From positions 8,594-72,593 of the forward strand of contig CAZABZ010000001.1 in the NCBI GenBank assembly GCA_964483535.1: a DNA stretch of 64,000 bases, given 5' to 3'. This DNA is from an uncultured Planctomycetales bacterium (GTDB taxonomy: Bacteria > Omnitrophota > Gorgyraeia > Zapsychrales > Fredricksoniimonadaceae). Both the position numbers and the translations under genes were made by a program. Positions 4,956 to 53,500 of the stretch are shown piece after piece; positions within the stretch are counted from its first letter, which is position 1, and every line of letters begins with the position of its first letter. The notes below the pieces were generated by a model. It was not told the DNA's origin, ran no database searches, and saw nothing but the letters and a program-made list of their open reading frames with translations.

Positions 4956-5162
4956 TGTTTCCCCCTTTTTGGGTTGAAAATCTAAAAAAAATATAAAATA
5001 ACGAGTTTGAAAAATGCTTTCATTATAAGCATCTACTTAAAATATAACACATTTTTAATAAAAAGCAAGCTTAAAACTTGATAAATAAGCAATATTTATA
5101 TAATTAAAGAACAATTACCCTGAGAAATAAAATCCCCTATTTTTGCTACTATTTCTTACAAA
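4956..5162 (-). promoter_or_regulatory. AT-rich intergenic spacer, probable promoter/5' UTR of the 1295-aa secreted-protein gene
   Basis: 207-bp non-coding gap, very A/T-rich with runs of A, lying between the PilZ gene stop and the next gene start on the same strand. No -35/-10 pair could be assigned with confidence. Confidence 0.3.
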
Positions 5163-5519: not shown

Positions 5520-5548
5520 GTTTTCTCTCCTTTCTAACGGGGTTGTTT

Positions 5549-29500: not shown

Positions 29501-32500
29501 CAAACGAGCCAATACATACGCCTTGTTATTGAAATGATACTTTTCAAATATCGCGGTGTTGATTGGGATAATGGCAGCCTCAACCGACTTACGGATAAGG
29601 TAAGTCGCCAAGCTGTTGGTCTGTATCTTGTTGCGCTTGACCAGCCTATACGCATCCAAAACAACCGCCTTGATTCTAATGTCCGTAACAAGGCCATCCG
29701 CGATCAGACGACGGAAGATATCAGCCACATCTTCTTTATGATTCGGGAAGGCGTGATCCAAAGCCTCTGCAGCAGCAAGCAGTGCATCATTGCCCTGCGC
29801 TCGGAACATAGCCTTAAGTAGATTTAACATGTCCTTCTTACGGGTTGAGATATCCGTGGGAGTTACATTGCGACCGGTCAAAATCTTCACCCGATTCGTG
29901 AACATATCGCGTATCTTTTGGAACTTAAGAATTCTTCGGATGTTAATTGCGCGTAAGAATGCCAACGCCGCCATCAGGAACGCGCCGATTAAAGAATAGA
30001 ACAACGCGCTCTCCTTAATCCCCTGCCAAATGGTCTTCTCTGTCAGAGTACCTATCTGCTTATCGACAGTGGCCTTTGTCGTCGCGACTGTTCCTGTATC
30101 CGGCGTCAATTCATGAGACTCCATTATGCCAACCGGTCGAAGGAGTAGATTCTGTACAATACCGTTATTCAGGGCATCGGAGATGAAGATATTCTTGGGC
30201 ATTCCTTTCGGCAAATACTCCAGACTAAAGGTCTTGCGGATATACTTGCTGTCCTGCAAGATGACCAACTTACCATTGACGTATTCACGATAAGGAATCC
30301 CGGCAAAATTCTGGAAGAGCCGTTTGATTTTGCCGACAATGCCTTGTTCCATATTTAATTCCCAAATATGAACATCGGCTGGATGACCATTAGGTTGGGT
30401 CACGTAGAAAGAAGCAGGCTTTTCTTTGGTTCGGTCATACGCATTGAGAACATTGTTGATATCTTTACCGTTGATCCAAACACTGTACACCGGTTCATTA
30501 TATGGATTGGAATAAACTTTCTTATAATCGGCAAGCACGTTATCATGTTCAAATATTCTATAATCCACGCCACCCCAAGTGAAATTGATTTCATATTTTG
30601 GCAGTTCGGAAAGTAACGGAATGTTCAAGTCTGTGGGACGTAATTTATTGACTAAGCTGCCATTAGCATCTTGCCCTATAAAAATATTCTCTAAATTCGG
30701 TCCGGCTATCGGATTGCCCTTGGCATCAACCTTGGTATACTGGCCGATCTTATCAGAACCATTGAATGCGTACACATAAGACCCATTGCTCATATTGAGC
30801 GCCGCTAAAATAGCTTCCTGCCTGGGAAGGTTGGATGAACGGTCATCGGCGTAAGAACGGAACGCAATAAGTTGTGGATTTTCTAAAGCGCTTTTCAAAT
30901 CCACCTTGCTCTGCCACGACTCTATGGCCTGCAATCTTCCTTTGCCTCCGTTCCTTATTTCCTTAGCAGCTGAGTCAACCTCCATGGATATTTGCCGGCC
31001 CAACACCTTCTCTGCCAGGAGGTCATAATTATCCTTGCTGGCATCGAGCTTGCCGGTGTATTGATCAACCGTCCCGCGCCCACGGAAAACGTCATAACCG
31101 ATAAGCCCTGATAATTTGTCAAAGTTGGTCAAATTGCTATCATCAAAAATATTTTCTGAATTGTCCCTGCCAACAAAAGTAGACAAAGTGTAATCGGCTA
31201 TGCCGTATATGCCGGTATGCCCATTATAGAAATACATAAAGGAAACGTCTCCGGGTAACATCACAATCCGGCCGCCGATTTTATGGCCAAAATCCTCCCG
31301 CGCCAAATCGCCCAGGTTATTGGCAGTTTCGAGAATATCAAACTTGATCGGACGCCCGTTATAATCAAATTCAACATGGCGGTCACTTTTCGTTCTATTG
31401 TTTACGTATAGCTTTTTGATATCAACGCTATTAATATCAGGAATGACATTCCCGTTACCATAAAGCAGTGCGCTCTTATCAAAAGCTTTTCCCATTTCAT
31501 GACCATTACTATCCAAGACAAAAGTTTCTGCCCGGTTACCCAAATCTACTAAGCTAGGAAGGCCTTCAAAATACGCAACGATTTCAATATTGTCCTTGAT
31601 AGTCCTTGTGATATGGTTATCTTTATTATGGGTCTCAACTGTTTTGTGATTGGCCAACATATGATTGATGACTTCAATAATTAAATTACCGGTTTGCGGG
31701 TTAAATGATACCGGTTTGGCGCTCTTGAATGGTTCTATCCTGCCATCCGGATGAACAATTACCGTCTCTGAACTATCCGCTTGGTTATACAAACTAAACG
31801 GACGGCCATCGACAGGATTGATTGCGCCATCATATTTGTTTCTGATGCTGATTAAATATCTCTGGCCATTGACAAAAACCTCGCGGTAGCTTTCTACGGT
31901 CCGGCTACGAGTAAGAACATCTTTTACTTCATACCATTGCAAGTGGCTTAAGAGATTTGTTAACTGGATCCTGATTTTGCCCTTATTGAACTCTTCGAGT
32001 TTAGATACCGTAAACGGAACGGAATATATATGCTGTCCGCGCTGGATTAAAATATCGGTATGGGCCTTGTCAGACAAAAACACATAGTTATGCCCATACC
32101 CATACCCTGTTATGCGCAAAGCTTGGCCGAGAATCTGATTATTATTGTCCACCAAGGTTATCTGCATATCAGTATCGGCTACGGGCAAGCCTTGAGCGGA
32201 AATCACCTGGATAATTTCGCGGTTGCCATTAAGCAATTGTGTCTGGGTACGGGTCAGTTCACCCTTGTTCCAGCTATACTTCCCATAAATAAACTCCGGA
32301 ATACTTTGTCCGTTCCAGACCAGCGATTCCAGCGCCGAAGCTTCCGTCCCTTTATTGTCATACGCGGGCACATAATCGCTTTTAATGCCATCGCTGGAAT
32401 ATGTCCTGCTCCGCATCAACCGGCCAAACGCACTCAAAGTCCTGTCTGCTTCTTCCAGCTTCTGGCCCTTTTCCAATTTAACCTGATGTTCCTGCCATAG

Positions 32501-35500
32501 CCCGGTCACACGATCATAATTGCCAACTGCGGTAATGGCTTTCTTGTGATCTACCAATGTCTCTGCGGTATAGTTCGTGTCGTTGCGGTCCATCTTAACA
32601 TTTGTATTCCACGGACGGCCCCATTTATCAACGCTGTTGATTCCAACCGAGGCTTCCCAGCGGGGATCATGCTTTTCAATAGTCTCTATGCCGCCGTGCG
32701 CCAAGTCGGTCTTTAAGACAGTCATGATCTGGGTCAACGGGTTGTAATCTAAGGTCCGGTAAGTTTCAGTTTCCTGGCCGTTGGTGAATTTAATGGCCAG
32801 AACGGGCGCCTGGCCTGCGAAAAATTCAGGATCATAGAATTTCCTGGTCATATCTTCAAGCGGGCCTGGGATCCCTTTGCCCATATTGACCATTTCTTCA
32901 TATTGACCGCCGATGTCACGTCCTTGATCATCGGTGACGATGATCCTTTGGGTATTGTTGTGGACAACATCTTGATTGACGGTTGGCAAATACCCGCCGA
33001 ACCGGGACAAATCGCGGTCATCGTTGTTCACCGGCGTGGTGTTGATAAACCGCTTATCGCCCGGCTGAGGATTAAGCAAAAGGTTGACCAATTCCTTTGG
33101 TGTTAATTCACTGTTCAAAGGAGCCTGGGGTTGTGTGCCGTTGTTAAACACCGTCGATCCTTGCAGAGGGCCGTAGGGGTTAAGCTGGTTATCGGTCTTA
33201 AAAAGGTTGTTGACCCTTCGGAATGGCTGGCTATCGACGCCGTAGCTATCCGCTTCCACGGAACCGTCCCGCAAATCAATATATATTTTACGAGAAGTCA
33301 TGTCGCGGTTATCAGTGGGGGTCACCTGCTGGTAATCAGTGGTAAAGGTCATGCCCTCCAGGGGCAATTGCCGATCATGGATCATTTGCTTATCAGGGAT
33401 CATTTGCTTGTCTTTGATCAACTGACGAACCCTATCAACATAGTTCTTCAGGTTGGCCTTGGTTGGATTGGCCAACTCCTGTTCATGATTAAAGGTATTA
33501 CCATATACACGGCTATTGGATTCCTTCCTTAATTCATTATATTCGGGGATAGTGATATGCTTAGACTCGATAGTCAATAGCTTCAGGCCTTCGTAGTAAA
33601 CTTCTACTACTTTCTTCCCTGAAGGATTTGTAAATTCGCTGATCATTTCTTTATGCAGAGGGGAAACGATGCTGGCGGCAAACCGGCCCTTTACGGGTGA
33701 GTTCATATCTATCGTGAAATTACTCCAGCCCTGAAGTTCGCCCTTATACCGTTGCAAAGAAGGCTGGCGGCGGTTTTCACTTTCTAATTGCTCCTTCTGA
33801 CTGCTGGTTAAAATTTCCTGGCCGTTGATCTTGACCGCATCGCCCACTGTGTTGTCCGGTCCTAGTTGATTAATGAACCCCGCGCCTTCAGAATATTCCC
33901 CTTCATCCCCGCGCAAGGCCTTGCCGATGTTGTGGGTATTTTCAGATCGATGCTCAACAAATTTCAGATATTCCGCAACTTCTTCCTCACCGGGCAACAA
34001 ATAAACGTGCGTAGTGACCCCATTTTTGGTGACCACCCATTCCTGACCGTTGTTTCGATCGACATAATCAACATAAGTTCCGTCAGCGGGCGCGGATATT
34101 TTTCCTGCTTCTTCATCTTTTTGTTGTTTTTGGTACAAATCAAATATTGCTCTTTGCTCTCTATCGCGTTCTTTTTTATCCGCCGGCTTTATCGTGGTAT
34201 GGCCCTGCTCCTCTTTGGACACTGCATCAGCATTAGGTAAGGCCGGCAAATCGGAACGGCTTGCTACCGGTGAGAGCAGATCATCATTGTGGAGAACGTT
34301 CGTTTCATATTCAATTAACGCGCCCAAGGATTTGTTGCCCCCGGCGGTAAAATAATCTTTGCCACTCCAAACATTCGGATCAGTGGACTCCGGAATGCTT
34401 AGACTGCCGCCTTTGCTTTGCAATGCCATTAAACTAGACTTATATGTTTTAATTACCTCCTGCAAATCCTTGCGTTGCTTCTCGCTTAGCGGAGACGGAG
34501 AAGCATTTAAAATTTGTTTTAAGACGCCCACAAAATCAGATGTTTCCGCCACGGCAACAATGGCCTCGCGTTGCTGGGGTTGAGTCAAAATAGCCAAAAC
34601 TCTATCAGCATCCTTGCCGGCTATTGCCCGTACTTCATCTTCTTTTAAAACAATACCCGGTATTAAACGCACCTGGGTTTGAGAAACTTCTTTCCAAATC
34701 TCTGGATTGTCTGTATCCAAAATCGAATCTGTGCCCAAGTATTTCACGAGACTTTCCTTCTCGATAATCCCCTTCGGGATAAGGCGCAGGGTGCTGTCAA
34801 CCGGGTCTAAACCTTTAAATTCTCCTTTTTCTGTACCAAAAGTATTGACAATGGCACGGGTGACCTTAATTAACTCTTCTGTCTTATCGGCCCCAACCAA
34901 AAACTCCTTGGCGAAGCCCTCCGGCCCCAAGACCCTTAACCAAAGCAGAGTGGTAGAAGACGCGTATCCCGGCTTACCTTCCTTATAATGGAACAACAGT
35001 GCCTCGTGATCCCACAATTTATGAGCGGTATCTATGACCTCCTTGGCGGCCTTAGGGTCACCATATTTATCAAAGAACGCGTACATCAATGGCGCCTCAT
35101 CGCCGTTTTCGATCTGCTTTATCTCTTTAATCAGACATTCGTGGATCGGTTTTAAAGCCCCTTCAAATTGTTTTTGGGCGCTGACCTCTTTCCCATGATT
35201 GTCCTTTTCATTATCCTCAATCTTTTCATTCGGGTAAGCTTTGTGGAAGTTGATCAGGCCAATACCGAACAAAGCTGTCGCTGTGCGGGAACTTGAGGCC
35301 GGCCTTAATTTTTCAACATCATAACTTTCAGGGGCCCCAGCGTATACTTCTCCTGGAATTCTGGTATTGACCTTTAAATTGCTGTAATAGACCGCCAATA
35401 TATTTTTGGCCTTTTGCTTGTCTTTCTCATTGGGGCTGGCAATAGCGCGCAAAACCAAGTTCAATTCATTAACGCTCATACCCCGTGGATTGTAAATTGA

Positions 35501-38500
35501 GCCTCCAATGTCATTAGAACCAAACAGATGCGTAGCCTGATTATTCTGAGCATATGTCCCGAAAGCAGTCGTGACCGTTTCGGAGAAAGATCCGATTTCC
35601 TTTGCTTTTCGGTAATCGATATAGGTTTGCCTGGTCTTTTCTAAATCTTTGATGGTCCGTTCGATGGCATTTGCTTTTAAGATTACTACGTCTGTCACTT
35701 TGCCTGCGTCATCATATTTAACATAGACCGGCACTTCGATTTTTTGGTCTGTCTGGGCAATGGTGATTATGGACTTCCCAGGAAGAAGATTTAAATTGTC
35801 CATCTCCTGTTCAGTGTACCCATAAGATTGTGACTTCCTCCAACCATCAACAACAATAATGGCTTCAATATTCGGATCCGCATACAAATCTTTGAGTGTT
35901 TGCAGATTTTGAATTTCCCAATCTAAGCTAGGGTTCTTAAACGGCAGAGAAAAATTAATCCTCAAATGCTTGGGTGAGTTGAAAAATAGCGGATTTGACT
36001 GATCGCTCCATTCATTAATAAAGCTGCGGGTATCCAATGAAACTCCGATGAATGGAAGCAACGCTAATACTGGGTTGAGTTTGCCATTGAACATATCCTG
36101 GATTCCTATCTTACTTAAGACTCCATAATTTTGCTTCCAGAAACTGTCTCCTGTTTGGATGCTAAGGTAAGGTAAAGTGTTGCCCTGGATGATCAAGGCC
36201 GCGGTCTGGATCAAATTGACCTGGCTGAGGTCCCAGGAAATAATGGGCTGGGTCAAGACAGTGACTAACCCGCTATACTTCGCTTGATACGATGCCCACC
36301 ACATATAATCCGGATGGGAAGTCCCATTTGCTTCAGTCTTGATATACGGATGAAGAATGTGATCATACTGTATCTGCGGTGCATATAAACCAAGTGTCTG
36401 GCCTATCAAGACGGTAATCTCATCTGAAACACTTAAAAATTTACCGACTAACGCTTCGTGCATACGTGATCTTAAGAAACTATCCACTTCGGCAATCTGT
36501 TGCACTGAGAAGGCGCTGGTGCGGAAGTTATGGCCTTTCTTTGTCCATTCATCAAATTGCTGATGGTTGGTTTGCCTGGTCTTTAACCATTCTTCAAACG
36601 TGATGCTGTTAGATCTGTCGCTTTCGGAGAACAGCACCCATCCGACCAACTCATCTTTACGTTTATCATCAATAGGGCCGGGCAAAGTATCCTTGACGTG
36701 ATGACGTAAATCAAAGATCACGTTGCCCAATGCCTGGACCACTCCGCCGCCTGGTATTCCAAAAGCGCTCATACCCGTGGTTATAAAATCTAAGGCAATA
36801 CCCAACCTGCGGCGGCTCTTTTGCATTTCCAGGGTTTTACCTACTGCATTCTTTTCCTGCTCAGCGGCATATTTGGCGAATTGATTTTGGGCAATCCCTA
36901 CACTGAACTTATTAGGCCCGAATAAATACCGCGGCTTTTGAAGCACTTCTTCATAGGTTTCCGGATAATACTGGTTCAAAAATGGTTTACCGTTTTTGTC
37001 GCCTAATAGCTTTTCTTTGTCCGAAGAAATTTCCGCGAACTGTATCCAAACTCCAGAGACGCTGTTGACATATTCCAATTCACGGCTGTTGCCTTTGTCC
37101 CCTTTAATCGCATAAGTCACGCGCTTAAACGGTACCTGTTTGGGCACCTCAACAATTTCGCCTTCAGCCATGAAGCGCTTAACAGAGCCGATGTTGCCCC
37201 ATTTATCAGGGATAATTTCCGCGGTGGTCAAAAGCCCTGTCTCAGGGATGGCCACGCCTTTAAACAATTGTGCCATTTCCGGTTTTGCCAACTCAGCGAG
37301 CTGCTCATTCCGATCAAACATGCCAAGGACCTTAATCAAGGCCATTTGCATTTTGATGTCATGCTGTGCGGACTTTATCAAATCGTATTGGGCCTGGGCC
37401 GCTTTTTCGCCCGACCACAAAATACCTTCTTGATCATGACCGTAGGCATCTTTGAATTTAACCAACGTCAAAAACGGCCGTCCGGCCAGTTCGTTGTTAT
37501 GAACATCCGCGAGATTAATCGGCGGAAACTTCTTATCATCTTTTATGTCAGCCAAATCAAGAGGTTCTGCGCCTAATGGAATAAATTTGGCGATTAGTTC
37601 TGTGTCTTTTTTATACAAGAAATGATTCATCTGTTTCTCAGTCCTAATCTCAAGTAATGGAGCGTGTAAACTGCCAGGCTCTATAGATCCAACGACAGCC
37701 ATGACTTCAGCCCCGAAATACAATTTCTCCTGGATATTTATAAAATTCTTACGGGCAGTTTCAAGCCACTTGATCTTGATGTCTGTGCCCTTGTAATTAA
37801 TTTTTCCTGTTTTCAGAAACTCTATCAAACTCTCGCGGTTTTTGAATAAACCATCCATGTTCAACCGGCTTAATTCTTTCAATTTCTCATTAAGCAATCC
37901 TTTGTACTCTTTAACCCCGAACAATTTATGGACTAAGGAATCATAAGCGACCATGCTCATCTGTTCTGTCCGGGTTTTGTCACCCATATCAATTGTTTCG
38001 CCGTTCAGAATCTTCACGTAATCTCTGACCCTGTCCGGCGTTTGCTGGAACACTGCTGAACTCAAGAGATCTTGACCTGCTTTGGCCCACTCTCCATTCA
38101 ACATATGCTGGCGCCAGGTATAAAATGTGCTATAGGAACCATTGGTCTGATACGCAAGTTCCACCGCAACCCACTGAGCTCTCCAGGACAATTTACTGAA
38201 TGCTTCCGGACCAAAGAAATCAGCTGCTTTATTAATATACTGTGGCAGTATTTCAACCAATATCTTGTCGGCTTCGTCCTGGGTCGATCCTCGCTTGCTT
38301 TGAATAACATCCTTAGGCAGGAGGTTTAGAACGGTGTTCCATTCAAATCCATAACCGATATCCATTTGTTTGTGGTTTGGATCTACATAGGGCCAAGCTC
38401 TAAAACCTTCATGCTTGCGTATGCTGCTCATTACGGATGGGCCAGCTTCCGGTTGTAACAAGGAGTAAGCTTCGGCTAAAGATTCCTGGATTCGTTGCAA

Positions 38501-41500
38501 ATCCAGATTATTCGTCTGATATTCCAGGGCCTCTTTATCCGCGATGACTTTGTACTCTTTATTGATAATACCGGTTAATACCGCTTCGACCTTTTCTAAT
38601 GCCGTCGTATCATTGCGAGAAACCGTGGGCGACGTGGCAATCTTTTGCAATAGCTTTTCCAAATCACGTATGGCCGCTTCCAACGCTTTGGCTTGTTCAT
38701 CGCCGCGAACGGCTATCGGTACGATAATTGAACCCTCCTCAAAGTATCCTTGCAGCTTATCTAATAGATCCTTCGAAAACTTCTTGTCATGGGCTTGTTG
38801 CAGGTCCTCGAGCTGATACCGTATGTCTAAAAGACCAAGTGACTTGACTTTGTTTAAACCGGCCAAAATATCTTTATTCTGCTCTGCATCCCGGATTGCC
38901 AAATCGAGTTCAATCTTTTCAAATTTCCTAAAGTTCCCCTTTTCATTGCTATTTCCCTGCAAACGCTGCAATTCGCTTTTCACTAATAGAGTATCTATCG
39001 CTAATTGTATTGATTCTTTGACCTTCTGGTCCTCTTGATACCGGGCTAATTCTAATTGATACTCGTAGTAGGCGCTGAGTACGCCAAGGGCACGCTGTTG
39101 AGCGGCGAACGCTGTCTTCTGGTCATTAGGGTCATAACGAACAGTGATCGTTTGACCTTCGATTGCCTTTTGGACCACCTGCTGGGTAGCAAGCCAATCT
39201 GAAAGATGATCGCCGCCAACAACTTGTTGAACAATGCCTTTGAATTGCTCAGCAGGCACATTATTGTCTTCTCTTATCTGCAAAAGCTGTTGGGTGTGGT
39301 AAAGCGCGATTAGCTTCTGCATATCCGCGGAGACGCTCTGTGGACCTACCAACAAGACTGTTGAAGCAACCTGCGCCCTGTTAAACGGTACAAAGTCCCG
39401 TACTTCAATAGCGGCTACCTGCGACTGAATGCTCAGTATGGTCGCCATCACGCTTGTAGCGGCTATTTTCTTGATGCGTCCGGCAATAGGAGTAGCGGCT
39501 TTACTCGAGCGTTCTTTGCTCTGAAGGGCCGTGATTTTCTCCTGATCTTTTTTAATTTCTTCTTGGTCCTTTTTGATCTCTGCTAATCTATGTTCAATAT
39601 TTTGGGCCATTCCCTTCAAATTTGAGGCGCCAAAAATATGCTCAACTGCATTCAAATTGCTCTCTTCCTGCAGGGATACGTATGGATTTAATCCCAGCTC
39701 TTGCGCTCCCTCTTGTAACCCTTGCGCTGTCTTGCTGTTCTTCTCTTTTAGCAAATCGTCGCCGTTCAAATTTTTTCTAATAATTGTTTGAAGTCCTGCC
39801 TCAATCCGTTTTTGCTGATTAGCTTGACTGGCCCTGTACCAATCACCTATGGAAATCCCGCGGACGTCTTTAGACGCGACGAAATAAAACGCCTGCCCGT
39901 TCATCTGGCGCTTCACTAAAGCCGCTATGGTTTCAAGGCCATCCTGGTCCAAATCAACCGCCACGCGCTGAGGAATACTCAAAACAAACCTGTCTAATCT
40001 GGCGGCCTCTCCATTCTCCGTTGTCTTAATACCAATAGCCTTAGCCGCGGAATTTTCCGGTGTGGCTGCGCCTGAAAGATTCAGCATATAAGCCAAACCA
40101 AACTCCGGATGGTAAAGATAATTTTCGCCCTGTCTTGCCAAATGCGCTTTGACCTCATCCACGTTTTGAGCTATCGCGCGATTGGTCCGGTAGAAGGCCG
40201 CCGCTATTTGATCACGTATCAACAGGTCCTTGATTAGAGGGACTATGGACAATTTAGCGGAAAGCGTAAATTTGATATCTTCCGCCTTCCGTGCTGTTGC
40301 CTGGGCTAACTTTTCAATTAATGGTTCCAGCTTGGCCTGGAAGGCTTTTTGCTGGCTGACTCGATCTTCTATCGGTAAAATCAAACTGACCTGATGTTTA
40401 TTCTTTAATTCCACAGACGGCACTTCGCCTTCACGAACATCCGTAATTTCCAGTGCTCCCTGTGCCCCGGCGCTATTGGCTAATCGGGCGCCCAATTGCG
40501 CCTTGAGAATAGCTCCGGCAAGGCCTCGGTCATCCAGCTTTTGCTCCAACTCTGCCAAAGTCGACTGCCGTCCCACCTTGGCCACGCCTGCGCCGCCCGG
40601 CAGAAGCTCTAATTCACCGACAATGCGGGTCTGAGGCTCAATGGCGTCACGGAATTCCTCATAAGAAAGATGCTCGCGTCCCGTCGCGATTTGGGCGTCT
40701 TTAATAGCATCTCGCAACTGAGGATATCTTTTAATGAATCCTTGCGGATTTAAGCTAAACTCATCATCTAAATGTCTCAAATTCAATTCATTGACCGGCA
40801 ATCTTGGCTCTCCAAACAAATTATTGACCGTATTGTCAAGGGTGTTCTGAGGCATAACATGATTAAAGAATTGCCCCATAACACTCATCGCGGAAGGAGG
40901 AACGTCTGCGCCGTAAGCAGGTGACTCCGTGGCATTGATGACCGCATTGATGCCATGACCGACAACAGAATCTTTAAACGGAGAATCTTTCTCGACAAAT
41001 GATGCCCCTGCCGCGGTTAATGTAAAGATTTCCGCGGCAATAATCCACATATGCCAGACCCCGGCCCAAAATTCTGCACCTGTATCCGCCAATAAATTCC
41101 AAATGGATCCAGAAGCGAAAGGCTCTTTCCCAAGTGATTGCCGAATCAACCGCCAGGCAGAAACCGGCAATAATAATGGAGACACCAAAGTTAATCCAAA
41201 CGCCACGATGTCCATGGCCACAAAATAAAGGGCCCCCTTAACAGAAGCGCTTTTAATAGGAGTGCTTTGTTCTTCACGGACGGCTTTCTCCAATATCGTT
41301 CCCAGGGCCGGTCTGCCGTTGGTATCTAATCTTCCGGTCTTGATTAAATCTCTAATCAGAACTTTTATCTCATCTCGATCCTCAATAAATCGCTTATCAC
41401 GCAACAAATCATAAAGTGTATTGGCATAAAAACCAACGTAGCCCATTGCCGCGGCTTTTTGGGCGAGAACCGCATGCTTTCTCGTTAAACTGTCACTTGA

Positions 41501-44500
41501 AATACGACCGCTTAAACGGAAAATCCTGTTTAATTTTAAATTCATAAACAGGACCATAAACCCTAATCTAAGCAATTCACCCCAAGTGAAGGTCAAATGA
41601 ACAGTCCACAATTGGTCCTTAAGCCAATTAAGACCGAATACCGCGCTGTGGGCTTGGTCCGGGAAGAAGTAAATCAAAACAAAGGAACCAGCAATTCGAC
41701 CGATGATCGCCAAAGTCGCCCTGCCAAACAAGAATGTCGCTGTCCCAATACCAACTGGGAAGACCAATTGCAAGACACGGCAAACAATGACCCCTCTGTA
41801 CCAGACTGCATTGAGTTTTCCTTTTTGCTCTAATTCATCCTGGGCATCTTTTGCCTCTTTTTTGATGTTCTCCTCAACAGCCGGGGCTAATTTACCCTTA
41901 ATATAATCATCAACGAATTCACCAAAAGCAATCAATGTCCAGGAAGCCACAAAGAAGAATCCCCAAAATACCGAGGCTAAATACGGTGATAAAAATCCAA
42001 TAATCCCGCCTTTGATAGCAGTGCCTATCATGTACCCATAATTGATATACCCCAGACAAGCTCCCAAAATTGTCGCGCCGATAACAAATATTGTGAACAT
42101 CCTGTTGTTAATTAATGAATTTACGAAACCACTCTTCTGTTGTGACCGGTTTTTGGACAGATCGAATAATTTCGTAAACCAGAATGGTTTAACTTCCTTA
42201 AAGAACGCACGCGATACTCCCAATATCATTGCGCCACCACTCACACCAAGTTGCTTTGCCTTGATTGTAATAAGCGAGAAAATATCTCTCAATCCGCCAA
42301 AGAATCTTGTATTTTTGTCCTTATAAAGACGATAGATATCCTTTGCTAAAACTCCGGAAGCTATCAGGAACAAAACTGATGGCAACAAGACAGTAAGTTC
42401 CTTGTAATTCTTAAGGCCATTCTGGTAAAGCTGAACAAGCGGTGATGTGCTTCCGAGGAACAGGCTAAGGGCCTCAAAGAAAAGTGGAATGCTGAAGATA
42501 AGATGTGTGAAGCTCTTTACTGTTGTAAAAAGTTTCTGCCGTGTTTCCTTTATAGGAATGTACTGCAGATGTTTGTCTTTCTGTGCCTTCCATGTGTATA
42601 AAATGAATCCAACTGGAATAGCAACCATGAGCGCATGGATAATGGTGGCCTGCGAAGGAACGGCAAATTGGATGACTTGACTAATTAAGGTTGGTGATGT
42701 TGAAGCAAAGGACAGGGCTGGCATCCCCAGCAAGAGAGCAAAAACTGTTATAGGTCTGACAGCTAATCTCCAAGCCCCATGTCCCTGAATAAATGCTATA
42801 ACTGGCTTGATAGCAGAATTATGGAAGCCTTGAATTAAAGCTTGAATGCGGGTTGCTATAGAAGGAACACGAATTCCACCGTTCTTTTCTGCCTCGTTTT
42901 GGGCGAGCGAAACAACTGTGGCTGCGGCAGTGCTTGTCAGAACAAACACTTTTTGCGCCTTCGATTCATCGCTTCTTGTCGGAGTCGCGGACGCAGTCCT
43001 AGAACCTTGAAGAAATCTATTGTTATAAGCGTCTACGTCGATACCCAATCGTTGCGCAGTTTCCACACTTCTAGAACCTCGCACATCTTGGGTTCTTATA
43101 CCTTTTATGGTTTCTGCTGCCTTGGGTACACTTCCTACACCTTCTGCACCTCTTGCAGCTCCGCCATATAGGCTAGACACGCTATTTTCACTTCTACGGA
43201 TGCCCTTCCCTAATACTATCCGGAATGCACCCAGCACTTCTTTAACGTACCTTACGGTACGAGAACGGATCTTGCTTGCTTCTACTGTGCCTCTACCTAC
43301 TTCGCTTGTAACACCCGCGTTCACCACGAGGGTGGTATTGCCAACTGCATTGTTGCCAACTTCTGTGCTTCTAACTGCTATGTTGCTTGTACTGCCTACC
43401 TCTACTACCTTTACTTCGCTTACTTCTTGCTTCTTCGCGGACGGAGCTCGCGCTAAGCCGCTTCCTGCATTTTCATCAAAAACGGTACTTCTTGTTGCAA
43501 CTCTAGTACTGCCAACTACTTCACTATTTTCCTCTTTTCCTACCATTAATCTGTATGCTAACCTGAGGAAGGTTAGTACAGATTGAAAAATACCCGGAGA
43601 ATATAACCTTGGGCTAGTTCTTGCTACAAAATCCTCCATATTAGTACCAAAATCGCCTCTATTCCCATCGGATAAGCCCATGTTTCCAGGACTTGTCTCA
43701 TTCAAGAACGTACTCGGTGGCGCACCTCCAGGCCCGAAATTCCCTCCAGACCCGGGCGGAGGCTGATTAGGATTAGTCGGTAAATACGGTAACGGCGGTA
43801 CTTGTTGTGTCTCCTTAGACTTAGGCCAACTCTTATTTGGCATCTCTTCCTTAGGCGCTGGCGTTACCGTAGCTGCTGGCAATTGACTTCTGCCGTTGAT
43901 AAAGGACAAGAAGCGATCAGGATCCTGTATTAGTTTCTTATTTGTATATTCATCGATTTTAGCAAACAAACTTTTTGCATCGGCCCGTATATTTTGTCCC
44001 TCTTTATCAACAACTTGCAATCTCCATGCCTCCGGCATCCCCAAGAAATCAGAAGCTTCAAACTGATTATTACCGGAATTAAGCATCTGGCTTAATTTAT
44101 TTATGACTCCCCACTGTCCTTTAATCTTGTCCGCATTTTGATAGAGAGCACGCAGGTAATTCATTGCCGCTCCTCTGGTCACAAAGGTCTCACAGCGCAA
44201 GAAGAAGTCGACATCCAACGCTGTCTTATCAGGCTTAGACTCATAATTTTTAAGGAAAATCGCAATCATTTCCGGATTATTCATCAAATGCGCTAATTCA
44301 TCTAGAGTCAGGGTCTCAAATCTTCCTTTGGTTTCATTCCTGACAAATTGCAGCCTTTCCTGGGCATCCTTGGCATCCATATCAAGCCATATCCCGGCTA
44401 ATGAAAGATAGCTCAACAACGAATCCTCTGTTCTGCCTTCTTTGGCTTCTTGATTCCTTATTGCCTCCAAATCCTTGACTTGCAGAGCACCTTTAGCGGC

Positions 44501-47500
44501 ATACAGTTTGGTCGATTCAGCCAATTCTTTAACTAATTTCATCCGCGTATCAAATGCATTAAGGAAAGGTGTTTTGCCCAATACGCCCCAGAACAGCTGG
44601 ACAACCTTCGGCTTTTGCGATTGCTCCTGCTCAAATCGTAATAACGCATTGCGCTGCGTGATCATTCTTTTATACAAAGTATCCGCGCCATTTTTAGTGA
44701 GTTTGTCAGACAAATGTTTGTACACCGTATTATTATGATCAACTTTCAACGCATCGGCTATTCTAAGCGGCATCAAATCAGGCATCTGATCATTAGTCAA
44801 CTGAGTCTGAAGTGTTCTTAAATTCTTAAGGAAATCTTGGGGTTCTATTTCCGTATTTATGCTGCCGCCATGCTGGGTCCAGAAATCCACCATAGTAGCC
44901 CAACGTAAAACATCCGTTACATTATTCTCATTGGCCTCGAATAAACGATTGGTTACGTCAAAAGCCAACCGATTAATTTCTTGACGGTCTTCGCTTTCGG
45001 CAGGGGCGTTTTGAGTTAGAACGGCCAACTGTCGACGTAACTCAGCTGAAAGTTTGGCAACCGTCTCCATCTGGCTTAAGAAAATTAACCCGAGCTGGGT
45101 GACGGAGTGGTTGGTAAAATACAAATCATTGTTTAAGAATTGGTCCGCCAGCGATGGTCCTAATCTTTGCTGCAAAGTATCAGCCGTGATTGGGCCATTG
45201 CTGGAAAGGGCTTGGGCTGTGACATTGGCCGCATGAATGGCGTCTTGACCATATACAGGAGCTATGTTGGTTGGCAAAACAGCTTCAGCAAATTTATCAC
45301 GCAAAGTCTCAAAGACCTCTGTGAAATTAACTCTTATCTGTTGAATCTCCTGGGGGAATTCCAAACTCGGCAATTTGCTCTTGCCGTAAGGATTGATTTT
45401 AATCTTGGGCAACTCTTCTCGTTGAAGGTCATGGGCTATATTCAAATAGCGACGCACCTGGTCTTCCAATGCAGGGCTTATGCCGGATGAGAGTAGCCCT
45501 TCGAGCATACTGGTCGTGCCGTTCCAATTCGATTGTGACGCGGCAATAAACCATTCCGGACCACTGACGGTATAATTAAGGAGCATTTCGCGTTCATTGC
45601 TGAATCGTCCTCCCAAAACCTGGGTCAACATTAACTCCAATAATTTTTTATCTCCAGGGGATTTCTCAAACAGGGCCAGCCATTTTTGCAAGGGGCTGAC
45701 TTGGCGTAAATTGTGCAATACATTAAGCACCGCATGGCGTACAGTCCGGTCACGATGGGCCAAAGCATTATATTTGACAATCAAGCCTAACAGAATCTCC
45801 GGCTTAATCGTCTTTGAATCAACTCCTGACAAATTCTGTTGAGCATCCTTTACAAAATCGCGGATATCTTGATACATTTTCCCATCCGGCAGGCGTTTGC
45901 TTAATATATCGACTTGTTCCTGAAGATATCCTCGATAACGCTCAAGGTTTTCTCTATCGTTGTAGAGGTATTTATCTCCCTGCTCGCCATTACGATTATT
46001 ACGGTTTAATGCCTGGATCAATAAGGACTCTTGCCATAAATGGCCGGCAAGTACATGGTTGTCCAAAGCGCCATTGAAAGAGATACCAGTGGAGATAAAC
46101 GGTAAGCCCAATACTATCCAGTTGTTGGGGGCCGCGTTATTTTCCAAATATTCAATTATTTCATTTTGATTTTGATTACTGCCATCGAGAATAAGTACCC
46201 TGATTTGGTCAATCGCTTCTTCTTTTTTCAAGTCATCCACCGTCAAAACAGGAGAATCTCCCCAAAATACGCCGGTTGAGGCTGAGGCCAAAGCGGCTTT
46301 CAATTGATCCGCGAATTGGCGCTGAATATCCGCATACGGAGATTGCACAACCACCGCGCGTTTTCCCGCTTGTTCGACAACTTTATCGACTGCAGCTTTT
46401 AAAGATTCACCTAATGTATCCTTCAAATCAAATAATGTGAGTTTGTCCAATTCGAGTGTGCTGGGTGAAATCTCTTCAAATGGGCCCTGCACAAGACCGG
46501 ATTGCAATATGGCCTCCAAGCCTTGAGCTGTCGCGGTAAAACCAACGACCTCATCATGGCCCAAGACCAATTCCCACAAAGGATTTTCACTCTTGGTTTC
46601 ATTGGTGATTGGCATCTTATCAATGTCAATTTTGTTATCGGGATTACGTTCGTTATATTGCAGGACCTTGCCAAACAAATAGGCAATGTATGAAATATTC
46701 TTTTCGACTTCCACGATGCCTGTCGGACCTACAGGGAAGTATCCTAATTTTCCATTTTTATCCAGAGCTAAATTTAATCTAATCCCGTCGGGTTCAAGCA
46801 TGGACTGAATGGTCGCGGCAAAATGGTTTTTATCGCCTTCATCTGTTATTTTGTATGCGTCATAAACCCCCCAGGAAACCAAGAAATGCCGGCCATCGAC
46901 GGCAATGTTAGGATTGTAATAAACAATGGCCTCGCCGCTGGCCTCTGCTTGACGAAAGACGTCCAGACTGTCCGTGATCTTGTATTTTTGTCCTTTACTT
47001 AAATCCTTAAGCCAGTCGGCCACTTGATTGCGCACGTGGGCCAAATAGGGATCTTGAGTTATATCCGTCGTAGTGGAAACAACGTAATTGTATATCTCGG
47101 CCAGCTTCTGCATCTCATCGACAATGAGCGAGCCGTGTTTAAATGTCACCGCGGCTTTGGCGATTTCAGGTTCTTCAAAAATAATCGGCATGAACCCGCG
47201 GGCATTGTAGGACGAAACCTTGATCTTATTGGGATTTGTCAGCATATTGACAAACTCCTGAATGCGGGCCTCTTTGTCTATTGAAGAAGGACCGGTCGCG
47301 ATATATTCTTTTAATTGATTAGACAATTCATCAAGATTGACAAATTCAAAATCCGGCGGCAATTCCCGGCCCAAAGCGCTAACCATGTCTAGAGCAAATT
47401 CTGCGGATGTCTTTCCAAAAATATGTTTCCCCTGAACAACGCGTCTGACAATGGGTTCGCTGTCAAAAAGCATCAACACATTTTTATTGGATAAAGAACG

Positions 47501-50500
47501 TATGACAGCCTGGAACACTTCGGGCAGGGTCTTGCCCGAACTATTGCCGGCCACAATGCTTTTGCCCATGTCCGCGGCCCTGATCATCTTCTTCTGATCT
47601 CCCCATTTCTGAAGATCAACGTAAACTCCACTTTGCTGCAAATTTTCTAATTCCTGATCAAGGGAATTCAAAATGGTCTCAACATCCTGAGGATTGACCG
47701 CAGCGACCATGGCCCGATCCCTATACGCAAAATTCAAAACCTCATCCATGAGAGCCACTACAAGAATTTTCTCCTGTTCGGTTTTATCTGTAATGCCCTT
47801 ATTCAGGAAGAATGTTAAAATCAAACGAATGACATCCGGATCGGCTCCATATTCCCTCGAGGCCTTTGATATTCTATCTCCCCAGTTTGTGGAACCAATC
47901 GCCATTGATGTCAGTGTATATGTGCTTCTGTAGGCTTCGAGATTTCTACGGGCCTCATCCTCCGAAATTTGGGCTTCTTTTAATCCGCTGATTAACTCCC
48001 TTGCCTTCTCTATATTGTCCTTTACATCTCCTGTCATGGCCTTATCATTCTTCCCATTATTACCATCCTCCATGGCTAAATTCAAACTAACTGAAACGAC
48101 AGGAATATTAATATTGACGGGCGGTTGAATATTGGGAATGCCCTTAGGAGGCACATTTTGCATTTCATTAGAAACCTTCCCCCAAGCCTGTTGTAAAATA
48201 TTCTTTGCTTTTTGAGTATCGCCAAAGATAACTTTAGGAATTTCCGTGAGAACTTTCTTGCGATGAGGATCATTTAGCATCTCCTCAGGAATTTGACGAT
48301 ACACCTCAACAATCTGTGCGGCATCAAGTCCTTTGGTAAGCTTAACAAGCGCCGCTCGATCATCCACAAGAACGCCTTTTAGATCAGCCATAGAATAAAG
48401 ATCCGGGCCCATGCTCTGCAACATGACATTATCAGGCGCTAATAATAGGAAGGTGCGTGAAGCAACATACCATCTGAAAGCTTCTAGCCTGCTCAACTGT
48501 CCGGCATCTACTTTCTTCCCTTTATATTCCACCCATTGTATTTCGTTGGCTGACTGGGACATGTCCACACTAGCAAACGTCGAAGATCCGACATGATCAC
48601 CATTTGTCAGCGGGGCAATCTCTGCCTTATCATACTCAGCTAAAATTGGAATAAGTTGTGCGCTGTCAGCTAAAGCAACATAACGGATATCCAGTCCTTG
48701 TTTAGCCAAAGACATAAAAGCAGTGTAATTATTTTTTGCAAAATTTCTAAGCAACCTGACTATACGGAGGGTTCGGGCAGAGGAAATAGCAGCATTTATC
48801 CGCCCTTTCGGTGGTGCTGTTGACTGAGGATTCATGTATGTGTCATTGCGAGGAGCCGCAAGTGACGAAGCAATCTCTTTTTGCATCTCAGCAACAGGCA
48901 CAGATGCCAAAACGGCATTGCCCCCTGCGATCAAAGCTTTAATATCCATTAAGCCTTTAGCCTTCAACGATAGCTTTTTAGCCACAGCATAAGCCTTAAG
49001 TACGCTCAAAACAATTTTCAACGCATATTGAGGATTATTCTTAGTCTGTACGGCCACAGCCTTCTCCAAAATCCTACCCATTGCTGCTTTAGGCAACAAC
49101 ATCAAGAGCGGAACAAGTTTACCGTAAAAATCCTTGGCACTTAACATTGAGTCATCAGAATCGAATTCACTATCTTTGGCAGCAAGTACAAAGTCCTTAC
49201 CAGGAGGAGCATACATGGCCCAGTCCAGACGAGAGGCTATGTTACTAATTACATTCATGGCCGCATCCAGAGGATTTTTAAATTTCTTGTCTGCCTGATT
49301 GATTATCCATATTTCTGTGACGGTATCCGCATAATCAACAGGACTGGTATCGCTCACGACTTCAGCGCTGTCGATAACCGACGACCCCGGCTGAAATTTA
49401 GTCTGGTTAACTAATTGAGCCTGATTCGCTGAAGCAGATATTTGTTCATCAGCTAAAGCATTGCGCTCTGGTTGTACAGGAAGCCCGTCGGAACCAATAA
49501 CCAAGCCCTCTCCATAGGGACCAATAGGCACCCTTTGCGGTTCTGGCTCAATCTGCGGAGTAACTCGGTTAATGCCCGCCTGATTATTGAAAACTATTTG
49601 AGGTGGTAGGACAATTCCCCTTTGTGCTTCTCCATCATACGAGGCATACACGCGATCCCAAGCTTCCTGCAAATTATTACTAAATGTTTGCGATACATTT
49701 TTCCATTTGGATTGATATTTAGTATCAAGGAATTTTAAAATAGGGACCAGTTTCTTGGCTTTGTCCCCATATTTGCTCCTTACCGTTTGTTCTGTCTCGC
49801 CTTTTAAAAACCCATATTGTTCCCGCAAAGCATCTAATTTGGTAAGCCAACCCGGCCCTTCACGACGGATGGCTTCAACATCATCTTTATCATAACCATG
49901 ATTTTCCATCATGCTGATAAAGATGCCTTTCAAATCCGTGTCGTCTCCTGCCCGCCAGAATTTCGGATCTTCATAAGATAAGCTGTTAGCATCATGTAAA
50001 ACCTTATCAACTTCTTCCAAAGAGTGGATGCTCTCATGGTTAAATCCATAGTTGATGTTGTGTAGATTTTCCTGCTCTTCATTGTCCAGATCCACAAACT
50101 CTGCTTGGATAGCCCAGATGCCGTCTGTCTCAACCCATTGGTCACCTTGTTTGGATATGAGCCCAAGTGTTTGTAAATATTCTACAAATTGCTCTTCTTG
50201 CTTTGTCAACTGCCGCCCCTTCGCGGAGTTCAAAAATTCAACAATCCCATAATTGCCAGCCTGATTAGTCAAGTTAACCCCATTATATTTAAACCCGCCG
50301 GCTGCCTTAAGAGGCACGATATCTCCTTTTTTAAATTCTTCTCCCGCACCTTCACGGAACACCATGAAGCGAGACATGGCGTTTAGCCCCCAACCCCTGG
50401 TCGCGACGATGTTGAGTATCTTTGTGCCTTTACCTACCTCTTCCCCTACAAATGGCGACTGCCCCATTTGAAGGTTGAATATTAAATGGCCCAATGATTG

Positions 50501-53500
50501 TTCTAATCGAAATCTTTTATTTTCCCTATCTAATGACATTGGAGTCAAACGCTGTTGGGGGGCCAAAGTCAAAAGTTGTTGATTGTAATTCTCTGCCATA
50601 GCTATTTCATCAGCGGTCAACTTTTGACGTTTTTCTTTTTCAGCGGCAATAACACCTTCCACTTTAACGCGCTCATCATCTAATTTTGCCCAATCGCCCG
50701 AGGCCTCAGTAATATTTCCACTTTTGTCAATATCCACCTTGATGCCAGTCTTCCCATCTTCCAGATGCAAAATACCATCTTGAAAACTTTGTTTAAAATC
50801 AATGGCCGCCAGCACATGCGCCAGAGCGCGCAAATTTATTTCTGAACCGCCACCAATCTTGCCATTATATATATTATCCAAGACCTTCGTTAAGGTTGTA
50901 TCCGTGATATGGTGTTCCAGTATATGGGTCATCACATCCATCTCTGCTGCTCTGAGGGCCAAAAGATCTGTAGTCTTTGCCAGCGAAGCCCGGATCTTTG
51001 CTAAGATTTGATCTGCATCTGGTTTGTTATTCTCGCGATAGGGCAGTTTTTGCTGGAAGGTATACAGCTTGCGGCCATCGCCCGGATCATACACGGGAAT
51101 ATTGGCCACTAACAGATCTTCAAATCCTTTCATTCCCTTGGTTTCGTCATCTTTGACCACTTCAATGATCCCTTTTTCAAGTCCCTTGCCGGATTTGATC
51201 TGTTCATCGAGCACCCCTAAAGCCAATCGTGCGGCTGGCAAACCGGAGATAGCCATGTTGCGACTGCGTTCAAATACTTTTTGAGCCTCGTCTCTGAAAG
51301 CGACATACATTCTTTCATCGCCCAGCGCTAAGGCGCGTCTGGCTTTCTGCAATTTCCCCCAGCCTTCAATCATATGTGTAAAGATTTCACCCAAAGCGTA
51401 ATCATGATCGTAAATTCCGACGTTCAAATTCTTTGCATCATTATGTTCGATGATGGTGCGCGATGCCCCCAGCACCGTCTCTACTTCCACCAGACGGGCT
51501 ATGCGGTCAATGATGTGGCCCACTTCATGGTCAGGAACGCCATTTTCCAAACTTTCCGGGTCAAGATCAAGCAGGGCTAACAAAGCTTTAGTCCCCAAAG
51601 CCAATCTCAAATTATCCGCCAAACCGGCGCTGCCATGCTGTTCCGCATAAGGATCAAATGTCATTTCAAAATCATTGTCTTTGAGATATTGATTAATTCG
51701 TTCCTTAGCTTCTTTTATGTTTGCCTCAGTTGGATCTAATAAAAGCCTGGGCAATTGATGATCTAGGTTCTCCAATAAATAACCTTTCAGCCACATAAGC
51801 ATATGACTTAAGCGGCTGCTTTTTTGACTGTCTGTCTTGAACTTCAGATAAACCCTTTGGCCTGAGCGAAGAACTTCTTTCCATTGACTTTGGTCTTCTA
51901 AACGAATAGACTTTTTATTTTCATCATCCAAAGTAATAAACTCGACATCAATGTCGTAACGTTTGACCAAATCCGCCATATCCTCCAAAAGACCTTCATA
52001 AACTGCGGTCCTGTCATCATTGCCGGGTAAACGCACTAATTCACTGCGTTTTTCCAAAGATTCCTTAAAACGGTTCGTGGCCGCGATATGATCGTGCACG
52101 GTAGCAATATCTTCTGCATAAATGATCGCGTCCTTGGGTGGCTTTAAACCCCTTCCTCTTAAATCTTTCCGTAAATACGGATCACTGTTCAAATCAAAAA
52201 TATATTTATTGTCTTTAGTGGTCTTAATGATACGTCCTAATAAATACGCTCTATTTTTAAATGTTCCGTCCTTACCGATAATGCGTCCTGTGTCATGCTC
52301 TATTACATCCCCCTGCTCAATCCCTTCCTTGGCATACCCATTTGTTTCAACAATAACCTTTTTAACATTCCAGGTTCCGTTTTCTTTCATGCGGCGTTCA
52401 CTGGTGATGATACGTTCGGTACGGAACTTGGTTGGGTCAGCCTCATCCTTTGTTAAAATCGGTTCAACAAACCGCTTGATATCCACTTCAGTGGCCCCCT
52501 TGGGGATCGCCGCAAAATTATTGTTGACGAATATGCCTTGATCCGGTAATTCCAAAATTTCATCGCCCTTGTTCTCATCTAAGGTGCGGATCAACACGTC
52601 TCCGTTTTTAATCGTTACCCCCTTATATTTGATAGGAGTCGGGTTGGTGACAATGATCTTTCTGATATTAACCTGCCCATTCTTATCGACGCTGACAATC
52701 GAACGGCCATAAATCGTCTCCCAGCCACGCATGCCCCCTAAGAAAACCTGTCGCTTGGTGTTGATGCTGTATTCTTGAATTTGTTTCTCTATGTCTTTTT
52801 CTTTCTTAAGCGCCTCCTGATCAATACGGATCAATTGATTTTCAACCAGCAGTGCTCTTAGGGCCCCGTCTGATGATGTTAAGCGAGAAATCAAATCTTT
52901 CTCTCCGGTGGAAAATTCTTCAATACTTAAACGTTCCTGGGCATTCTCCCCGCTGGCTTCAACCATTTGTCCGTTATTTGCGATACTGAAATCCCCTTTT
53001 TTACCGCCGATAGCCTGTAGTAAAATATTTTGATTGAAACGGTTATCTTTCTCTAATCTCATCCTATGATTAATCTTGTCATAAGCATATTGAACAGGCG
53101 CCAAATATTGTTCCCCTGTTTGGGCATCAATGATTTGCAAAATAGCATCTGAAACATATTCACCTTTATCTTTTCGTACATTAAACTGCACCAAACGCTT
53201 TTCAGCAACAGGCGCGAATGACATGAATGCCCGTTCATGTTCAGCTAAAGGATCGTCTGTTTCCTCGAATATTTTTAAAAGTTCTTGATCGGCCTCAGAT
53301 TTATACCAATCCTCCTGGGAAACGACCTTTTTAGTATTGGGGTTATAGACCTGATTTTCATTTGCGTCCATAGTCGGAGCATTGGCATAATTACCAAATT
53401 TTAACCGCTGACCGACGTTAAATATCTCCCCTTCCTTATAACGCATGGTACTAACAGACTTGTCAACCAGTATCCGCTGATAGCCGCCTGTGTCGCGAGG

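Follow-up and report, generated by a model that had tools for sequence, protein, structure and literature searches.

The closest described relatives of the protein considered here are the archaeovorin-type giants of the phylum Omnitrophota, which combine numerous transmembrane (TM) regions with TPR, SLT and PPDK domains, and whose genes are found with a type II secretion-like locus upstream and, in most cases, with a pilZ gene directly downstream (West-Roberts et al., 2023; 10.1101/2023.11.21.568195). A divergent SecA_DEAD helicase or SecA preprotein-binding domain is reported for 'most' of these giants; TMHMM and DeepTMHMM disagree on the localization of giant proteins, the authors call TM-based localization ambiguous, and published surveys call inside/outside assignments of such giants unreliable (10.1101/2023.11.21.568195). 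A 2026 preprint classifies 46% of 916 long Omnitrophota proteins as 'TM-only', and these are read as cytoplasmic-face proteins (10.64898/2026.06.07.730766). Here we analyze a stretch of 64,000 nucleotides (the window) from the contig CAZABZ010000001.1 (positions 8,594 to 72,593; assembly GCA_964483535.1), deposited as an uncultured Planctomycetales bacterium, which is nearly filled by a single stop-free open reading frame (ORF) of 19,480 codons (5549..63991, minus strand). We favor, with moderate confidence, its reading as one inner-membrane giant, 19,480 residues long or longer, exposed on both faces of the membrane and belonging to the TM-rich giant kind of Omnitrophota and other bacteria of the Planctomycetes-Verrucomicrobia-Chlamydiae (PVC) group.

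To our knowledge, hardly any of the TM-rich giants of PVC bacteria has been characterized. With the archaeovorin-type giants, the present protein shares a length of more than 10,000 residues, many TM regions between divergent enzyme domains, TPR, a muramidase-type domain, PPDK, and pilZ downstream. It differs from them in the muramidase, which is of the SLT type there and of the GH24 type here, in the addition of an OxsB-like radical SAM domain and an RSH-like domain, and possibly in its phylogenetic surroundings, the hosts of the former being Omnitrophota, whereas the neighboring MutS is closest here, among the matches listed for GTDB representatives, to a metagenome-assembled genome labeled 'uncultured Planctomycetales' (58%, other hits at 44% or less). 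As to the SecA-type domains, SecA_DEAD is not among the Pfam matches at E<=10 for residues 2700-3350 and 5450-6050, where ResIII and generic P-loop families appear, and a phmmer search against the Protein Data Bank (PDB) returned no SecA match in the giant; motif I of the giant, GTGEGKS, resembles the SecA motif, TGEGKT, and this is a lead, not a test. HEAT repeats have no match in the giant, in which TPR were found. With the 'TM-only' class, the protein shares the many TM helices, radical SAM, the regulatory or metabolic Pfam content, and the lack of a signal peptide in the part seen. However, the bulk of that class is read as cytoplasmic-face, while the present protein adds a predicted-outside segment of 3.7 kaa (thousand residues) carrying a lysozyme, and the topology of that class comes from DeepTMHMM, while here it is argued from cluster parity and from the domain order in homologs.

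We thus view the giant as a further example of an already published kind, what it adds being a conserved membrane module, a GH24 lysozyme domain and the reasoning from helix parity. It offers a concrete, testable topology, with a stop-transfer-like lone helix, a lysozyme predicted outside, and enzymes dependent on ATP, S-adenosylmethionine (SAM) and B12 predicted inside. If this topology is true, then the rare conserved module, which marks the crossing point in several relatives, would serve as a landmark for reading other giants, and wall cutting outside would be physically coupled to nucleotide and cofactor chemistry inside. If it fails, the protein is simply another member of the described class.

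Eight clusters of TM helices in one giant protein

The frame of the giant continues, without closing, to the right edge of the window, where the codons Leu-Tyr-Ser (63992-64000) precede the ATG at 63991 without a stop, and thus the true N-terminus may be located upstream and the gene may exceed 19,480 codons. Residues are counted here from this ATG, residue r corresponding to DNA position 63991-3(r-1), and this mapping reproduces the DNA coordinates of a first-pass annotation, which had proposed a polytopic protein with at least five clusters of TM helices interleaved with soluble enzyme modules. The product was scanned on the Kyte-Doolittle scale (19-residue windows, threshold >=1.6) and on an insertion free-energy (dG) scale (Hessa-type values; 21-residue windows). 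Residues 1-7075 contain no Kyte-Doolittle window at or above 1.6, and the lowest 21-residue dG in residues 1-7000 is +2.35, while every one of eight clusters downstream reaches -0.6 to -2.9. With the soluble part of the protein itself as the control, these eight clusters are thus far outside the soluble background and not a product of chance. They are as follows, with the corresponding Kyte-Doolittle groups in brackets:

40994..42766, minus strand: TM cluster 1, residues 7076-7666 (7076-7666), four helices in two hairpins (7077-7216), followed by the five strong and two marginal helices of the conserved module
29945..30007, minus strand: TM cluster 2, residues 11329-11349 (11328-11351), a lone helix, dG -1.7
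27542..28126, minus strand: TM cluster 3, residues 11956-12150 (12006-12141), 4-6 helices
24443..25456, minus strand: TM cluster 4, residues 12846-13183 (12846-13183), three tight hairpins with about 6 helices in total
23768..23944, minus strand: TM cluster 5, residues 13350-13408 (13370-13400), 2 helices
13670..13804, minus strand: TM cluster 6, residues 16730-16774 (16730-16774), a hairpin of 2 helices
11102..11389, minus strand: TM cluster 7, residues 17535-17630 (17535-17630), 2-3 helices
5714..6178, minus strand: TM cluster 8, residues 19272-19426 (19276-19426), 2-3 helices, including the most hydrophobic one, dG -2.7

The total comes to about 29 TM helices (range 25-33), gathered in eight tight clusters, or about one helix per 670 residues. 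Both scans therefore agree with the proposal of a polytopic protein whose soluble enzyme modules are located between TM clusters. The clusters are real, but their number is eight rather than five: the strongest one (residues 19272-19427, dG -2.7) was missing from the first list, and two of the segments that were on it, 18330-18360 and 19130-19165, are probably not TM. The latter belong to two copies, 60-70% identical, of one internal duplication of about 170 residues (residues 18290-18467, 8591-9124, and residues 19083-19267, 6191-6745) that flanks the RSH-like domain on both sides, and the second copy has an Arg within the segment and is called non-TM by our home-made predictor. NCBIfam has no match in any of the TM clusters.

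Three isolated hydrophobic peaks were also considered as TM helices and assigned to soluble cores instead. The peak at 14217 is a Rossmann-like first beta strand (IIISGGVG) just upstream of a DUF218 match, the peak at 15021 is similar to it, and the peak at 16045 is the helix following an NHGH nucleotidyltransferase-like motif.

A conserved membrane module and the lysozyme beyond it

The second part of cluster 1 is a conserved module, followed by a long TM-free region in which a lysozyme domain is embedded:

40853..42148, minus strand: conserved membrane module of about 425 residues, residues 7282-7713, defined by a hidden Markov model (HMM) and 24 representative homologs
30011..40993, minus strand: region B, residues 7667-11327, TM-free by the dG scan and predicted extracytoplasmic by the topology model
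37988..38449, minus strand: GH24 (T4-type) lysozyme domain, residues 8515-8668, from a three-sequence profile compared with PDB

The 24 relatives were recovered in an exhaustive HMMER search of 1.84e9 representative proteins with residues 7050-7700, the conserved core being residues 7282-7713. A word-indexed homolog search gave no match for cluster 1, the lysozyme region or the module alignment, and scanning GTDB genomes, JGI metagenome contigs and IMG/VR for the module brought up no locus. The module is single-copy in the giant (HMM match of 414 bits), with no repeat elsewhere in it, and is recognized by the motifs PYLxxVLWNFFW, FPxxxGxxxFxLGRxQL and GKEFWxSFWHMWIIxAEIG, its helices holding an invariant Arg and an invariant Glu and a conserved His (in the WHMW motif). 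It is without a relative in Pfam, NCBIfam, PDB sequences, PDB folds or BFVD. AlphaFold2 (AF2), when given an alignment of 19 sequences, produces an all-helical model (pLDDT 72.9, pTM 0.65), for which the best Foldseek match has an E of 0.96 in PDB (TM-score of at most 0.17) and of 0.81 in BFVD; in the single-sequence mode, residues 7050-7700 yield an unusable model (pLDDT 41.6).

The hydrophobicity of the module is maintained in 19 homologs at 20-30% identity. Five of its helices are consistently hydrophobic in these, with a median dG <1, and a further two are marginal, at a median of about 2.3; the helix count of the module is thus 5 or 7, an odd number, unless exactly one marginal helix inserts. 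Loop charges averaged over the homologs give one violation for a 5-helix model and two for a 6-helix model. Nearly all of the homologs are fragments of very large proteins, the longest reaching 7,848 residues; one complete gene is that for P0002, of 3,338 residues (ENA ERZ21869602 ctg75682l, 422-10438), in which the module is followed by GH24 and SLT domains, the latter (E 1e-22) about 310 residues past the module. As this protein is complete at such a length, the cassette of the module plus wall hydrolases also occurs outside giant genes. Every one of the long homologs has the module as the final membrane element ahead of a long TM-free stretch (by a scan at 21-residue dG <1.5, and by the GH24 alignment for P0004). 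The domains C-terminal to the module are GH24 and SLT (P0002), GH24 (P0004), SLT_3 (P0024), Peptidase_M28 (P0022) and thioredoxin (P0003), and those N-terminal to the TM cluster are GNAT (P0024) and HATPase_c (P0010); the former are of wall-active or usually exported kinds and the latter of cytoplasmic type, in favor of an outside location past the module. In P0020, an RSH-like region precedes the module, the modules being shuffled among homologs.

The invariant Glu and Arg and the conserved His, the lack of a known relative, and the position as the last membrane element before a TM-free stretch that repeatedly holds GH24, SLT or M28, raise the prospect that the module is a dedicated device, rather than a mere anchor, that moves the very long segment following it through the membrane together with its wall hydrolases. 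We regard this as improbable. If true, then, with the first 11,000 residues nearly free of Cys, over half of the giant would be built for the cell surface and would possess an export module of its own.

The initial family scans of the giant revealed no lysozyme. The domain was recognized via P0002, whose stretch between the module and SLT aligns with residues 8522-8650 of the giant. A profile of three sequences (the giant, P0002 and P0004) matches T4 gp5 and T4 lysozyme (T4L) in PDB at E 3e-12 to 1e-9, over 149 of 160 positions. The sequence of the giant by itself matches T4L in BLASTP at E 4e-4, and Pfam Phage_lysozyme at E 0.005 (17.5 bits, below the cut-off of 22.3), while PHROGs independently labels the GH24 copy of P0002 an endolysin. 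Glu8528 and Asp8537 align with E11 and D20 of T4L, and the position of T26 is occupied by Asp8544 in the giant and by Thr in P0002 and P0004. Thus, the domain is like T4 lysozyme and T4 gp5 in the full-length profile match and in the positions of the catalytic Glu and Asp, but differs from them in being only about 23% identical, in having Asp at the Thr26 position, and in lying 8,500 residues down the chain of a membrane protein. The lysozyme of the first-pass annotation can therefore be placed at residues 8515-8668 and named GH24 (profile against PDB, E 3e-12), in a stretch predicted to be outside. PHROGs has no match in the module-lysozyme region of the giant or among the neighbors of P0002, and thus a phage origin of the cassette is unsupported. 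Aside from the lysozyme, Pfam at E<=5 returned only noise for region B and for residues 11350-12010, 12140-12850, 16775-17535 and 17630-18700.

Sidedness and competing explanations

Topology was modeled by a home-made dynamic programming routine combining the free energy per helix with a bonus per Lys or Arg (K+R) in inside flanks, the recognized soluble domains being barred from TM states in a constrained run. An unconstrained run that placed the PPDK block outside was rejected, as it counted the Rossmann-like strand at 14217 and the helix after the HxGH motif at 16045 as TM. The lone helix of cluster 2 has 2 K+R in its N-terminal flank and 5-6 in its C-terminal flank, which points to an N-out/C-in orientation, and with TM-free stretches of over 600 residues both before and after it, residues 7667-11327 and 11352-11955 must face opposite sides of the membrane, making a two-sided protein very likely. 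In the constrained run, each of the five parameter sets that include the charge term favors an outside over an inside placement of region B (scored over residues 7720-11300), the margin being 2.2-4.6 units. Under this charge-weighted model, the helix counts are 9 or 11 for cluster 1, one for cluster 2, 4-6 for cluster 3, six for cluster 4, and two each for clusters 5 and 6. Robust across the model are the single helix of cluster 2, the two-helix hairpins of clusters 5 and 6, and the mostly even counts, with 2-residue outer turns, of clusters 3 and 4.

The arrangement we favor would then be as follows. The N-terminal 7,076 residues, with TPR and an SF2 ATPase, would be cytoplasmic, and cluster 1 would cross the membrane an odd number of times (9), so that residues from about 7610 to 11328, with the lysozyme, would be located outside, on the face with the peptidoglycan. 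The lone helix 11329-11349 would return the chain to the inside, and clusters 3-7, as even hairpin bundles, would tether the OxsB-like radical SAM, PPDK-like, nucleotidyltransferase- and kinase-like P-loop, and RSH-like cytoplasmic blocks without crossing. A wall-cutting module would thus be held outside, with a series of enzymes that depend on nucleotides and cofactors right below it, and the adjacent PilZ protein may provide control by cyclic di-GMP.

The SF2 ATPase, radical SAM, PPDK, uridine-kinase-like P-loop and weak RSH modules all fall within stretches predicted cytoplasmic, in agreement with the first-pass annotation, which had named radical SAM, RSH and kinases as normally cytoplasmic. 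The broader proposal, of cytoplasm-type and periplasm-type domains segregating to two sides, holds in the charge-weighted home-made model and is left undecided by hydrophobicity alone. The picture of enzyme modules on alternating loops is not retained, as the best reading of clusters 3-7 is one of hairpin bundles with an even number of helices and outer turns of 2-21 residues, and as one TM-free stretch of 3,300 residues (13409-16731) accommodates radical SAM, DUF218, NAGPA and PPDK together with the nucleotidyltransferase-like motif and the P-loop. The model instead supports a single outside excursion of about 3,700 residues, the other clusters looking like hairpin anchors between cytoplasmic blocks.

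A number of observations weigh against this arrangement. The topology comes from a home-made free-energy and positive-inside predictor rather than from a benchmarked tool. Once the charge term is removed, the two placements of region B tie (delta -0.1 to -0.4), and the K+R in/out ratio of the hydrophobicity-only helices, 0.9-1.8, is non-discriminating. In the AF2 model, the marginal last helix of the module (7630-7666) is long, like the TM helices, which would make cluster 1 even, and helix 7588-7608 is followed immediately by 3 K+R in the giant and by about 4.7, on average, in the homologs. A weak match to NAGPA, usually an extracytoplasmic protein, is found within a block assigned to the cytoplasm, and we know of no experimental precedent for the export of an internal loop of 3,700 residues. 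The composition of the N-terminal part is also of concern. Only one Cys is present in residues 1-7075 (C6600) and one in residues 7667-11327 (C9619), with two more in TM helices, while the last 8,100 residues contain 33, including those of the radical SAM cluster; at the C-terminal Cys rate, the probability of zero Cys in 7,075 residues is about 1e-14, and the neighboring PilZ and MutL have about 1-2% Cys. Cys depletion is typical of exported giant proteins, and the near-Cys-free residues 1-7075 resemble these, sitting uneasily with a cytoplasmic N-terminal 7 kaa that holds an intact-looking ATPase. As the ORF is open at the edge, a signal peptide upstream is possible, and the location of the N-terminus is the weakest link of the model. 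Since the preference of the predictor vanishes without the charge term, sidedness is a prediction and not a result. We still consider the predicted sidedness to be reasonably probable. Three lines of evidence, each modest and partly independent of the others, speak for it: the charges beside the lone helix and in the loops of the module, a helix count that homologs share, and the recurrence of wall hydrolases past the module.

The same data can be read as a pure anchor on the cytoplasmic face, with an even cluster 1 (10 helices), region B and the lysozyme in the cytoplasm, and an odd cluster 3 returning residues 11352-11955; the lysozyme would then be latent, like a phage endolysin before release, or active only after cell lysis. 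The hydrophobicity-only predictor has a slight preference for this (charge term c=0), helix 7630-7666 is drawn TM-like by AF2, and the 'TM-only' class, 46% of long proteins, is read in the same way (10.64898/2026.06.07.730766). However, the lone helix would need to insert against the charge bias (2 versus 5-6 K+R), the fit becomes 2.2-4.6 units worse once charges are counted, cluster 3 would need to be odd, with a weak extra helix, and the GH24, SLT and SLT_3 domains of four family members would end up on the side without peptidoglycan, making this placement doubtful overall. Burial in the cores of soluble domains, a case that the first-pass annotation had named as the one to exclude, does account for the isolated hydrophobic peaks at 14217, 15021 and 16045, and probably also for those at 18340 and 19143, but for the eight clusters it is refuted by the internal control: these hold runs of 2-10 segments, each 19-25 residues long and with a dG below 0, spaced by turns of 2-20 residues and flanked by K/R, none such being found in 7,000 residues of the same protein, and the hydrophobicity of cluster 1 is conserved in 19 homologs at 20-30% identity. 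As an explanation of the clusters, buried cores are hardly credible.

Two further scenarios question the fate of the chain rather than its fold. It may not operate as one polypeptide, post-translational cutting or internal starts producing several ordinary proteins, in which case the topology rules for the whole chain would be void. Cleavage by C39 or S8 peptidase domains has been raised for other giant proteins (West-Roberts et al., 2023; 10.1101/2023.11.21.568195), the order of modules is shuffled among homologs (in P0020, the RSH-like region comes before the module), and P0002, complete at 3,338 residues, holds the module, GH24 and SLT alone. Yet Pfam scans detect no peptidase domain in the ORF, a stop-free frame of 58 kb has been maintained, and each cluster would still need to be inserted co-translationally, in the order made; we find such a division unlikely. 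Still less probable, in our view, is an exported effector, the protein or its fragments leaving the cell, the clusters inserting in the membrane of a prey or host, and the enzymes being delivered in the style, by analogy, of MARTX or large clostridial toxins. The near absence of Cys in the first 11 kaa would agree with this, as would the Gly/Ala/Ser-rich residues 1080-1700 with their 15 GxxxG motifs, the adhesin-like appearance of the N-terminal repeats, and the predatory lifestyle and secretion loci beside giant genes proposed by West-Roberts et al. (10.1101/2023.11.21.568195). On the other hand, no signal peptide, type I secretion signal or autoprocessing protease domain was found in family scans of the ORF, the Fe-S and B12 enzymes would need unfolding and reloading with cofactors, and a chain with about 29 stable TM helices, arranged as hairpins and flanked by charges, resembles a resident membrane protein.

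Other soluble modules, N-terminal repeats and neighboring genes

The remaining recognizable features of the giant, and the gene immediately downstream of it, are:

57122..58369, minus strand: TPR repeats, about residues 1875-2290 (Pfam and PDB-sequence search)
55277..55675, minus strand: SF2/ResIII-type P-loop ATPase, residues 2773-2905 (Pfam ResIII, 25.8 bits, cut-off 22.5)
22067..23182, minus strand: B12-binding and radical SAM domains, OxsB-like, residues 13604-13975 (PDB 5ul2, OxsB, E 6.9e-39; Pfam B12-binding and Radical_SAM; NCBIfam B12-rSAM families)
19775..21109, minus strand: weak DUF218 (residues 14295-14405) and NAGPA (residues 14579-14739), both below Pfam cut-offs
16949..17890, minus strand: PPDK nucleotide-binding and phosphohistidine domains, residues 15368-15681 (PDB 1kbl, E 4.9e-28; NCBIfam TIGR01828, E 1.5e-42; Pfam PPDK_N and PEP-utilizers)
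14798..15904, minus strand: HxGH nucleotidyltransferase-like motif (NHGH, 16041-16044) and uridine-kinase-like P-loop (GGSGSGKT, 16301-16308), from motifs, NCBIfam udk (E 1.3e-4) and a weak Pfam AAA_16 match
7664..8251, minus strand: weak RelA/SpoT (RSH) synthetase-like domain, residues 18581-18776 (Pfam RelA_SpoT, E 9.9e-6, 26.2 bits versus a cut-off of 27; PDB RelA, E 5e-4)
5163..5519, minus strand: PilZ gene, 118 residues, starting 29 nt past the stop of the giant

About three quarters of the chain is without any match in Pfam, PDB sequences or NCBIfam. The SF2 ATPase has motif I, GTGEGKS, at residues 2804-2810 and motif II, DEAH, at 2902-2905. The OxsB-like module has an N-terminal B12-binding domain and, after it, a radical SAM core containing a three-Cys motif, which places it with the class B (B12-dependent) radical SAM enzymes. 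The Cys motif itself is C13783-x4-C13788-x2-C13791 (GCPWGGCAYC, window 22085-22660), versus the canonical CxxxCxxC. For PPDK, the nucleotide-binding and phosphohistidine parts alone match, the PEP/pyruvate TIM-barrel domain being not detected. The catalytic-domain matches to OxsB (PDB 5ul2) and PPDK (PDB 1kbl) have E values of 7e-39 and 5e-28, while in the giant the Cys spacing is Cx4Cx2C and both are internal modules of one chain.

In the region of residues 16030-16400, NHGH and the hydrophobic helix next to it resemble the nucleotidyltransferases of the cytidylyl/adenylyltransferase type, and the P-loop is located about 260 residues further on. Judged from these motifs, the two could represent a nucleotide-salvage-like pair, each member being below the family threshold.

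The N-terminal part includes two unusual regions. Residues 1-900 (61292-63991) are made up of about four tandem repeats of about 240 residues, with identities of 26-36% (168-393 versus 649-893, E 4e-20) and no family match, and this array may continue upstream of the window. Residues 1080-1700 (58892-60754) are rich in Gly, Ala and Ser (37%), with 15 GxxxG motifs versus 3.6 expected, and contain several weakly hydrophobic segments (dG 4-6), called TM under lenient settings, which could be glycine-zipper-like or marginal membrane segments.

Among the neighbors, the product of 1,295 residues encoded at 1068-4955 (minus strand) has a signal-peptide-like N-terminus (MFKRLIASLVCFTFIFSNLQYVHAQP) and no Pfam or PHROGs match, and is probably a secreted partner or an unrelated exoprotein. 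The downstream end of the giant gene is also found in a metagenome contig in ENA, containing the final 2,612 codons of the giant, the PilZ gene, the gene for 1,295 residues, mutL and mutS. This contig is identical to the window from about 1000 to about 13000, and the substitutions between them thus hold no information on selection. Over positions 1-1000 of the window, corresponding to part of mutL, the two differ by 5-10% and by a 6-nt indel, a pattern that suggests strain mosaicism or recombination at mutL.

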